64,000 nucleotides of DNA from Escherichia coli (lineage in GTDB: Bacteria > Pseudomonadota > Gammaproteobacteria > Enterobacterales > Enterobacteriaceae), in the NCBI RefSeq assembly GCF_001677475.2, contig NZ_CP015229.1. The stretch is one strand, 5' to 3'. Numbering within the stretch: position 1 is the first letter of the stretch; each line of letters begins with the position of its first letter. Below the pieces are notes generated by a model. That model did not search any database. It had not been told where the DNA came from and saw only the letters and a list, made by a program, of their open reading frames with translations. A program made the translations under genes and the position numbers. Positions 60,547-62,877 of the stretch are shown piece after piece.

Positions 60547-60807
60547 TCAGGACTCGCTCACCACCACCGTACCGATTTCCGGGTGGCTAAAGCTGGTAAT
60601 TTTATCCAGACGCAGCTCGCGGGTTGCACCAGCGGCTTCGACGACCAGATATTCCACATTTTTGCGGGAGACTAAATCACTGGCTTTTGCCTGCAATTTT
60701 TCGCCATCTTTCAGCTCAAGTGTCAGCATTAAATGATGCTGGCAGGCGAGCTCAAGATTATCGTAATCATCACAATTGATTGGTTGATACGTATCATTCA
60801 TTGACAT
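60547..60807 (-). CDS. rof: Rho-binding antiterminator Rof
   Basis: 86 aa [25 protein letters not shown]... Confidence 0.92.
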
Positions 60808-60994
60808 AATCGCTCACCAGTAAGTTTGCCGCAGCGTATGCTGCTTTTTCCCTGACAGCCTCAGAAAGGGCGTCGTCGGCAGCCATTTCATTCAGCACTT
60901 TCAAAACGCAGCCCAGCGCGTCCGGAACGTATCCTAAGTCTCCGCTGGCGATTTCCGCGTACCGCTTGCGTATTAACTCACAATATTTTTCCAC
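60794..60994 (-). CDS. yaeP: UPF0253 family small protein
   Basis: 66 aa from (V)[21 protein letters not shown]; GTG start; 3' end overlaps the rof 5' end by 14 nt. Confidence 0.85.
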
Positions 60995-61159
60995 ATGCCC
61001 TCCTGTCAGCACTCTGACTTAACCGTGGATGCAAGTCTAAGCCTACGAAGATAAACTCTGTTTCGCAAGGTGACTATACCACACTCATTTCTGCAATATC
61101 AGCGCCGCAACTGCACGTATTCCGTTACAATGGCCTCCTGATTCGAAAGGAGTTTTCTT

Positions 61160-61705
61160 ATGGCGCTTAAAGCGACAATTTATAAAGCGACGGTTAATGT
61201 GGCCGATCTCGACCGCAACCAGTTTCTCGATGCCTCTCTGACGCTGGCGCGCCATCCTTCAGAAACCCAGGAGCGCATGATGCTGCGCTTGCTGGCATGG
61301 CTAAAATATGCCGATGAACGTCTGCAATTTACCCGTGGTTTGTGTGCCGATGATGAGCCGGAAGCGTGGCTGCGTAACGATCATTTGGGCATTGATTTGT
61401 GGATTGAGCTGGGGCTGCCGGATGAGCGACGAATTAAGAAAGCCTGCACCCAGGCCGCAGAAGTGGCACTGTTTACCTATAATAGTCGGGCGGCGCAAAT
61501 CTGGTGGCAGCAAAATCAGAGCAAATGTGCGCAGTTTGCCAATCTTTCCGTCTGGTATCTGGACGACGAGCAGCTGGCGAAAGTGAGCGCCTTTGCCGAT
61601 CGTACCATGACGCTGCAGGCAACGATTCAGGATGGTGTTATCTGGTTATCGGATGATAAGAATAATCTGGAAGTGAACTTAACCGCCTGGCAACAACCTT
61701 CATGA
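61160..61705 (+). CDS. yaeQ: YaeQ family protein (function not established)
   Basis: 181 aa [22 protein letters not shown]... Confidence 0.92.
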
Positions 61706-62124
61706 TTGTGATTTCCCGACATGTTGCTATTCCCGATGGTGAGCTTGAGATCACCGCCATTCGTGCGCAGGGCGCGGGCGGGCAGCATGTTAATAAGACC
61801 TCAACGGCTATTCATCTGCGTTTTGACATTCGGGCGTCCAGCCTGCCAGAGTATTACAAAGAGCGTCTGCTCGCCGCCAGCCATCATTTGATCAGCAGTG
61901 ATGGCGTGATTGTCATTAAGGCACAGGAATACCGCAATCAGGAACTGAACCGCGAAGCGGCGCTGGCCCGGCTGGTGGCAGTGATTAAAGATTTAACAAC
62001 AGAACAAAAAGCCCGACGACCCACTCGCCCCACCCGTGCATCGAAAGAGCGCAGGCTGGCATCGAAAGCACAAAAATCAAGCGTGAAGGCGATGCGCGGC
62101 AAAGTGCGCAGCGGTCGGGAATAA
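61702..62124 (+). CDS. arfB: alternative ribosome-rescue factor B (peptidyl-tRNA hydrolase)
   Basis: 140 aa; GGQ motif ([10 protein letters not shown]); basic C-terminal tail; 4-bp overlap with yaeQ. Confidence 0.95.
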
Positions 62125-62137
62125 AAAGAAGGAATGG

Positions 62138-62848
62138 ATGGTGAAAAAAGCGATAGTGACAGCGATGGCTGTAATCAGCCTCTTTACTCTGATGGGTTGT
62201 AATAATCGGGCCGAAGTCGATACGCTTTCTCCGGCGCAGGCTGCCGAACTGAAACCGATGCCGCAAAGTTGGCGCGGCGTGCTGCCGTGTGCCGATTGCG
62301 AAGGAATCGAAACCTCTCTGTTCCTCGAAAAAGACGGAACCTGGGTGATGAATGAGCGTTATCTCGGTGCTCGTGAAGAACCTTCCTCCTTCGCTTCCTA
62401 CGGTACATGGGCGCGAACCGCTGACAAGCTGGTATTAACCGACAGCAAAGGTGAAAAGTCATATTATCGGGCGAAAGGAGATGCGCTGGAGATGCTCGAT
62501 CGTGAAGGTAATCCGATTGAATCGCAGTTCAACTATACGCTGGAACCGGCACAATCCAGTTTACCCATGACGCCGATGACCCTGCGGGGCATGTATTTTT
62601 ATATGGCTGATGCGGCGACCTTCACTGATTGCGCGACCGGAAAACGTTTCATGGTAGCGAATAACGCAGAGCTGGAGCGTAGCTACCTGGCTGCGCGCGG
62701 TCATAGTGAAAAACCGATGTTACTGTCAGTAGAAGGTCACTTTACGCTTGAGGCTAATCCGGATACCGGTGCGCCGACTAAAGTATTGGCACCCGATACG
62801 GCAGGGAAATTTTACCCAAACCAGGATTGCAGTAGTTTGGGGCAGTAA
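62138..62848 (+). CDS. nlpE: outer-membrane lipoprotein NlpE (Cpx-pathway sensor)
   Basis: 236 aa; lipobox LMGC; CxxC motif (CADC). Confidence 0.95.
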   Translation: MVKKAIVTAMAVISLFTLMGCNNRAEVDTLSPAQAAELKPMPQSWRGVLPCADCEGIETSLFLEKDGTWVMNERYLGAREEPSSFASYGTWARTADKLVLTDSKGEKSYYRAKGDALEMLDREGNPIESQFNYTLEPAQSSLPMTPMTLRGMYFYMADAATFTDCATGKRFMVANNAELERSYLAARGHSEKPMLLSVEGHFTLEANPDTGAPTKVLAPDTAGKFYPNQDCSSLGQ

Positions 62849-62851
62849 TTG

Positions 62852-62875
62852 AAAGCCGGAGCATTCTCCGGCTTT
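62852..62875. terminator. hairpin between convergent nlpE and yaeF
   Basis: AAAGCCGGAG catt CTCCGGCTTT, 10-bp stem with A/T flanks. Confidence 0.75.
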
Positions 62876-62877
62876 CA

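Follow-up and report, generated by a model that had tools for sequence, protein, structure and literature searches.

What, if anything, joins a protein of no assigned activity to a ribosome rescue factor when the genes for the two share four nucleotides (nt)? The question is raised by the yaeQ-arfB-nlpE locus at positions 61160-62848 of the stretch analysed here, 64,000 nt of Escherichia coli DNA (contig NZ_CP015229.1, assembly GCF_001677475.2) that is referred to below as the window. The feature itself is already known: it is an annotated operon, its coupling has been described, and a link to translation has been proposed. A proposed functional link between YaeQ and ArfB was published in 2022 as a use case for the software GeCoViz, limited to Enterobacteriaceae (PMC9252766), and the legend to Figure 1E of a paper on Rof gives arfB as lacking a Shine-Dalgarno sequence and overlapping the upstream open reading frame (ORF) (10.1101/2023.08.30.555460). 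What we add are pairs in other classes with the reversed order arfB>yaeQ, the company that yaeQ keeps with S4, RF3, SUI1 and ABC-F genes, and the recognition of nlpE as lineage-specific; these comparative points are modest and constitute guilt by association only. The overall explanation we propose, and to which we assign roughly an even chance, is that of a known Escherichia transcription unit in which YaeQ is tied to ArfB-mediated rescue and nlpE is a passenger.

The three genes lie on the + strand, yaeQ at 61160-61705 (181 residues), arfB (yaeJ) at 61702-62124 (140 residues) and nlpE at 62138-62848 (236 residues), as taken from the ORF list together with the sequence, and the RefSeq annotation gives the same three genes with identical spacing. 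A sequence-only reading had proposed an operon in which yaeQ overlaps arfB by 4 bp and nlpE follows 13 bp later, and all of this is borne out: the ATGA at 61702-61705 (+ strand) contains both the stop codon of yaeQ and the start codon of arfB, the gap before nlpE occupies 62125-62137, and a consensus scan predicted no promoter-like or terminator-like sites separating the genes. Between the convergent nlpE and yaeF there is a GC-rich 12-bp hairpin (62850-62877, strand not assigned) of -24.2 kcal/mol (z -5.0, with 0 of 200 shuffled sequences folding as well), which is probably a bidirectional terminator closing the operon. Because the junctions of -4 and 13 nt are too short to hold a promoter, and the strong hairpin stands only 3' of nlpE, the assignment of yaeQ, arfB and nlpE to a single transcription unit on one strand appears sound. 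The operon promoter must lie on the + strand of the divergent intergenic region between yaeP and yaeQ (61013-61159), where the consensus scan found no + strand sigma-70-like site.

At the level of translation, yaeQ is preceded by the Shine-Dalgarno sequence AAGGAG (61147-61152, + strand, 7 nt 5' of its ATG) and nlpE by a Shine-Dalgarno-like AAGGA (62129-62133, + strand); for arfB, no GGAG, AGGA or GAGG occurs within 20 nt 5' of its ATG. Since arfB combines the want of a Shine-Dalgarno sequence with the ATGA overlap, it is probably coupled to yaeQ in translation. If so, ArfB would be made only by ribosomes that had just completed YaeQ, an arrangement that would keep ArfB scarce and tie its output to that of YaeQ. 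Such coupling fits the reports that ArfB abundance is very low and that chromosomal arfB cannot replace transfer-messenger RNA (tmRNA) or ArfA unless overexpressed (PMC11721466). As for RNA structure, a candidate regulatory hairpin over the yaeQ Shine-Dalgarno sequence (61135-61152) folds no better than shuffled sequence (z -0.26), and the same is true of the yaeQ/arfB junction.

These features could also be taken to mean that yaeQ is mainly a translated leader setting the expression of ArfB, with a YaeQ protein of little function of its own in E. coli. The reliance of arfB on the ATGA junction, and the very low levels at which ArfB is held, are what such a leader would predict. However, YaeQ is a well-folded and strongly conserved protein with invariant residues, it forms about 1550 clusters at 50% identity that mostly lack an adjoining arfB, and in other lineages the order is reversed and yaeQ is the downstream gene. 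As such, we regard a mere leader as barely credible.

The case for a tie between YaeQ and ArfB themselves comes from outside the enterics. We scanned 80 non-enteric YaeQ loci from genomes, using a consensus-first alignment of representative YaeQ proteins to spread lineages; the sample spans Nitrosomonadales, Gallionellaceae, Nitrospira, Marinobacter, Burkholderiaceae, Oxalobacteraceae, Xanthomonadales, Cellvibrionales, Aeromonas, Thiocapsa, Geothermobacter and others. A second sample, independent of the first, came from metagenomes and was built around another YaeQ sub-consensus; it contained 66 loci with enough upstream sequence, and the two samples together make up 160 non-enteric YaeQ loci (cited below by L numbers). 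Within two genes of yaeQ, arfB was found in 7/80 genome loci. In six of the 80 it is the same-strand gene immediately 5' of yaeQ, namely in L002 (Gallionellaceae), L004 (a betaproteobacterial metagenome-assembled genome), L018 (Sideroxydans), L003 (a Lamellibrachia symbiont) and two gammaproteobacterial metagenome-assembled genomes (L010 and L022), and in Ferrovum (L080) it lies two genes downstream. The metagenome sample yielded arfB directly upstream of yaeQ in 2/66 assessable loci (L107 and L162). By chance, a single-copy gene would come within two genes of yaeQ in about 0.1% of genomes, so that nine instances were observed where about 0.2 would be expected in 160 loci, or approximately 40 times chance, and the adjacency amounts to about 6% of non-enteric loci.

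The junctions in these loci are tight, with spacings of 1 nt (L002), 3 nt (L018) or about 11 nt, or an 11-nt overlap (L003). A neighbour-joining tree of YaeQ distributes the linked loci over at least three separate clades (the enterics, a gammaproteobacterial clade, and a Gallionellales/Ferrovum clade), and among these clades three arrangements are seen: yaeQ>arfB, arfB>yaeQ, and yaeQ and arfB with an ABC-F gene between them. Beyond the enterics, then, yaeQ-arfB adjacency is uncommon, recurrent, far above chance and not tied to gene order, and the combination of independent clades, reverse order and tight junctions is the pattern expected of genuine functional coupling. The sequence-only reading had suggested a functional link from the tight coupling in this one locus, to be refuted if the pair were rarely adjacent outside Enterobacteriaceae. 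The raw frequency is indeed low in both samples, yet it is far greater than expected; the suggested link is partly supported and plausible. In L162, the 170-bp spacer between arfB and yaeQ (289-461) carries a long inverted repeat, GTAGGTTGGGCAAAGC ... GCTTTGCCCAACCTAC, which resembles a repetitive extragenic palindromic (REP) element in look.

Other genes of translation recur beside yaeQ as well. A Pfam census of the genome sample, covering 103 same-strand neighbours within 150 bp and two genes of yaeQ, placed RF-1 (ArfB) first with seven proteins; the remaining families were VF530 (six, in one Nitrospira clade), S4_2 (five, and two further by hidden Markov model search), an HI0933-like flavoprotein (four, in Xanthomonadales), LysR (four) and SUI1/YciH (three, in Nitrospirae). 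The S4_2 neighbours match the YbcJ and YaaA models, and in L002, L004 and L018 the gene order runs from prfC (RF3, E 1e-268) to S4, arfB and yaeQ. This Gallionellales-type cluster spans 567-3541 in L018 (with junctions of 2-3 nt), 3-4010 in L004 and 3719-6558 in L002. An S4 gene lies 3' of yaeQ, with no arfB, in L040, L054 and L059. In Ferrovum the gene between yaeQ and arfB encodes a YheS-like ABC-F ATPase, and such a gene directly downstream of yaeQ on the same strand was observed in L080 (5938-8698), L119 (5001-7270) and L125 (5001-6496). Furthermore, ABC-F genes occur within 2.5 kb of yaeQ in six metagenome loci, and a prfB-lysS operon is near yaeQ in five loci. The census of the metagenome sample returned HI0933-like proteins (four), NYN (three), DEAD-box helicase (two), ABC-F (two) and PpnP (two). 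The enrichment of translation genes beside yaeQ is real; it is not exclusive, and many of the counts are phylogenetically non-independent.

The third gene of the operon behaves differently from the first two. The lipoprotein NlpE (CutF) matches both the N- and the C-terminal NlpE domains (PF04170 and PF17185) and the NCBIfam equivalog NF007814 (398 bits against a cut-off of 243), and its N-terminal stretch ending in SLFTLMGC has the form of a signal peptide with a lipobox cysteine. In another member of the Enterobacteriaceae (GCA_032007285.1), whose YaeQ is 83% identical, the locus reads tilS, rof-yaeP, yaeQ-arfB with the same 4-nt overlap, and then proS; in both loci from this assembly (L164 and L165, 3001-5763) the convergent proS follows yaeQ-arfB directly, and nlpE and yaeF are absent. 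From this comparison of sequences we take nlpE and yaeF to be lineage-specific insertions at the yaeQ-arfB locus and the conserved unit to be yaeQ-arfB, nlpE being a passenger gene that would have been added to the transcript in the Escherichia lineage. As nlpE is in the same transcript here and yet absent elsewhere, membership of a transcript need not imply shared function.

The same argument can be turned upon yaeQ. Under this alternative, co-transcription would carry no shared function: YaeQ would be a DNA-directed or otherwise unrelated enzyme of the PD-(D/E)XK fold, and its place beside arfB in the enterics and a few further lineages would reflect operon hitchhiking or shared low-level stress regulation, just as for nlpE, which has no evident link to rescue. 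We consider this a realistic possibility, if one that falls well short of even, and a number of observations that weigh against a YaeQ-ArfB tie speak in its favour. Among the overlaps found in bacterial operons the 4-nt ATGA class is the commonest, and the one in the window is for that reason real yet unremarkable by itself; 4-nt overlaps are no proof of shared function on their own. No arfB lies nearby in about 90% of the non-enteric YaeQ loci, nor was it found near yaeQ in Vibrio-like, Pseudomonas-like and three other representatives, mostly on short contigs. The replicate signal in the metagenome sample is much weaker, with RF-1 in 2 of 77 neighbours and no S4. DNA-related neighbours recur, among them the VF530 'DNA-binding protein' (six) and HNH (two), together with RecQ near yaeQ in L082 and an Ada-like gene in Burkholderia, and the closest structural neighbours of YaeQ are mostly DNA endonucleases. 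In a broad survey of the genes around ArfB, the sole association reported was with a pseudouridine synthase, and YaeQ was not listed (PMC6514570), while Steczkiewicz (2012) gives glyoxalase and GNAT as YaeQ neighbours. An AlphaFold model of YaeQ joined to ArfB through a (G4S)6 linker (10 paired rows, no interface data) folded both parts and gave a predicted template modelling score (pTM) of 0.58, with no confident docking of one upon the other; we do not count this result as evidence on either side. Last, nuclease activity, ribosome binding or a rescue phenotype of YaeQ was not reported in the literature searched. Set against co-transcription alone are the adjacency in at least three distant clades with varied gene order and translationally coupled junctions, the standing of ArfB as the most frequent close neighbour in the genome sample, where other translation factors cluster too, and a count some 40-fold above chance.

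Several smaller features of the yaeQ neighbourhoods deserve record. In Nitrospira-type genomes (L033, L049, L052 and L143, and also L011, L016, L061 and L068) the small VF530 protein (PF09905) precedes yaeQ, and in several Nitrospira-type loci a SUI1/YciH translation-factor homologue comes after it. In the Xanthomonadales-type loci L032, L034, L035 and L041 the HI0933-like flavoprotein gene begins 4 nt after yaeQ, and this family tops the metagenome neighbours too. A second YaeQ-like ORF, partial or full, stands beside yaeQ in L013 (6001-6762) and L045 (5491-6534), and could be either a tandem duplication or an artefact of gene calling. Finally, a small protein encoded 3 nt upstream of yaeQ (L040, 1441-1731; L065, 5599-5997) has a weak match to 'LexA regulated protein' that is below the cut-off (E 1.7e-5); a gene of this family is adjacent on the opposite strand in L006, and the family occurs in L031 as well.

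Of the two proteins, ArfB is the one whose function is understood. It is a stand-alone peptidyl-tRNA hydrolase with a GGQ motif that rescues ribosomes which have run to the 3' end of a truncated mRNA and stalled, its basic tail probing the empty mRNA channel before the peptide is released. Both hallmarks that had been picked out from the sequence are present in the window: the GGQ motif is residues 26-28 (codons at 61777-61785, + strand), and the C-terminal tail, residues 101-140 (62002-62121, + strand), has 15 lysines or arginines among its 40 residues. The protein matches RF-1 (PF00472, E 8e-25) and the NCBIfam equivalog NF006718 (200.3 bits against a cut-off of 100), and is identical at 136/140 residues to the E. 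coli ArfB of the 70S ribosome structures 4v95 and 6yss. With its 140 residues it has no codon-recognition domains, and its tail retains R118, L119, K122, K129 and R132, all of which are reported to be required for activity (PMC3950681). From its 97% identity to the characterised E. coli protein, we infer that the ArfB of the window hydrolyses peptidyl-tRNA on stalled ribosomes in a codon-independent manner. In a 231-residue protein from an Escherichia albertii assembly (P0016), residues 1-160 of YaeQ run in frame into residues 68-140 of ArfB, the two parts meeting at a DGVI motif common to both. We rejected it as a natural fusion of YaeQ and RF-1 domains, as it is a deletion hybrid that has lost the GGQ motif and occurs in one assembly, where it could represent either a true pseudogene or an error of assembly.

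YaeQ is another matter, and the statement that its function is not established agrees with the literature searched, in which no activity has been assigned to it. It matches PF07152 (COG4681) with E 9.3e-72 over residues 1-173 of the 173-position profile and is identical at all but one residue to the E. coli crystal structure (PDB 3c0u), one of four in a family of 1551 clusters at 50% identity, and it shares the fold of these solved structures, which is that of the PD-(D/E)XK nucleases with a core of alpha-beta-beta-beta-alpha-beta. Across 90 diverse sequences E35, R43, G85 and W115 are invariant, E66 is D or E in 99%, E83 is D or E in 90%, and K94 is K or R in 87%. The conservation of E35, E66 and E83 suggests that an acidic metal site has been retained. 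YaeQ nevertheless differs from other proteins of this fold, among them type II restriction enzymes, CdiA-CT toxins (including a tRNA nuclease), NucS and Can2, to which its identity is 4-14%: the canonical lysine of the (D/E)xK motif is replaced by the invariant G85, and there is an extra C-terminal beta domain. To judge from its conservation, K94 in the next helix may substitute for the missing lysine. YaeQ matched no NCBIfam functional model, and a role in anti-phage defence, considered as a candidate, was set aside when PADLOC gave no match. With regard to phenotype, claims are few: a transposon mutant of P. aeruginosa is reported to show biofilm-specific tobramycin tolerance, and one array study found that ethanol induces both yaeQ and yaeJ (PMC1599756). 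An experimental link of yaeQ to arfB/yaeJ, tmRNA (ssrA), smpB or arfA was not found in the literature searched.

The surroundings of the operon suggest yet another function. In the window the rof-yaeP genes lie divergently upstream of yaeQ, and YaeQ was originally claimed, through suppression of rfaH mutants, to modulate transcription elongation or termination, in which case its position beside the Rho inhibitor gene rof would be a reflection of that role. The rfaH suppression, which is disputed, is attributed to Wong et al. (1998), whereas Vicari and Artsimovitch (2004) reportedly concluded against a common pathway for RfaH and YaeQ. Moreover, the fold of YaeQ is nuclease-like, with no match to a known transcription factor, and rof and yaeP are absent from the gene families that recur beside yaeQ in the 160 non-enteric loci. 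A role in transcription is, on balance, very unlikely. The yaeP-rof pair (60547-61012, - strand) overlaps by 14 nt when the annotated rof start is used, and both small operons at the locus thus employ overlapping reading frames that are probably coupled.

With regard to its relatives, the window has the genes, order, 4-nt overlap and 13-nt gap of the yaeQ-arfB(yaeJ)-nlpE locus of E. coli K-12. A 3.3-kb yaeQ region is present in 5424/5426 complete E. coli genomes, and the best DNA identity to that collection is only 97.9-98.9%, with no functional difference seen; within 36000-63800 of the window, the closest of the 5426 genomes reaches 97.9% in the yaeQ region and 98.9% in the dnaE-bamA region. 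The window probably derives from an Escherichia/Shigella lineage outside this collection.

Returning to the proposed tie between YaeQ and ArfB-mediated rescue, it is convenient to separate its parts. That YaeQ, a compact protein of the PD-(D/E)XK fold with a conserved acidic site, may act in the same translation quality-control pathway as ArfB is a proposal we hold tentatively, at slightly less than even. It is more speculative, and in our view rather doubtful, that YaeQ would be a metal-dependent nuclease that attacks RNA when ribosomes stall or afterwards. In that event YaeQ might cut the mRNA and thereby leave the A site and the mRNA channel empty, which is the substrate that ArfB needs; alternatively, it might dispose of the RNA left after rescue. 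The most specific version, in which YaeQ would be a ribosome-associated PD-(D/E)XK endoribonuclease in a rescue module with ArfB, joined in some bacteria by a YbcJ-like S4 protein, RF3 or an ABC-F protein, we consider improbable as it stands. Two candidate roles could be envisaged for such an enzyme. One is that of the A-site mRNA cleavage enzyme acting on paused E. coli ribosomes, a nuclease that is described as unknown in PMC3834316; the other is that of the nuclease arm of a bacterial counterpart to the large-subunit rescue carried out in mitochondria by MTRES1 and mtRF-R.

Were YaeQ a partner of ArfB, a widespread orphan family with four crystal structures would gain a role, and ArfB-type rescue would acquire a nuclease step. 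Were the link false, the locus would illustrate how little an operon overlap says on its own about shared function, as nlpE shows already. In either case, the reversed order, the tight junctions and the co-location with S4, RF3, SUI1 and ABC-F genes make the link one that can be tested cheaply by experiment.

No self-sufficient rescue factor other than ArfB is known in bacteria, and ArfB is the ancestor of human mitochondrial ICT1 and mtRF-R. Elsewhere, endonucleases such as SmrB in E. coli, Cue2 in yeast and the RelE-type toxins create non-stop rescue substrates by cutting the mRNA at stalled ribosomes, which gives rescue factors access. The hypothetical action of YaeQ would be alike, although the folds differ, being SMR or RelE in those enzymes and PD-(D/E)XK in YaeQ. 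The prfH-rtcB pair places a truncated GGQ release-factor paralogue beside an RNA-end enzyme, and has been read as a coupling of rescue with RNA processing (PMC6514570); there, however, the partner is an RNA ligase of demonstrated activity and the linkage is widely conserved, whereas the yaeQ-arfB linkage is found in a minority of lineages. Peptidyl-tRNA is kept on the large subunit by the S4-domain proteins Hsp15, RqcP and MTRES1, the last of which also brings in mtRF-R, a factor of the ArfB family (PMC9757039). A 2026 preprint weighs against a simple transfer of this parallel to E. coli, since it assigns ArfB no leading part on Hsp15-bound ribosomes there; in addition, the operon in the window has no S4 gene, and the mitochondrial system has no known YaeQ counterpart. 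The likeness resides in the Gallionellales-type loci, where the S4-arfB-yaeQ clusters set a GGQ factor beside a small S4 protein, the same pairing as that of mtRF-R (C12orf65) with MTRES1 in mitochondria.

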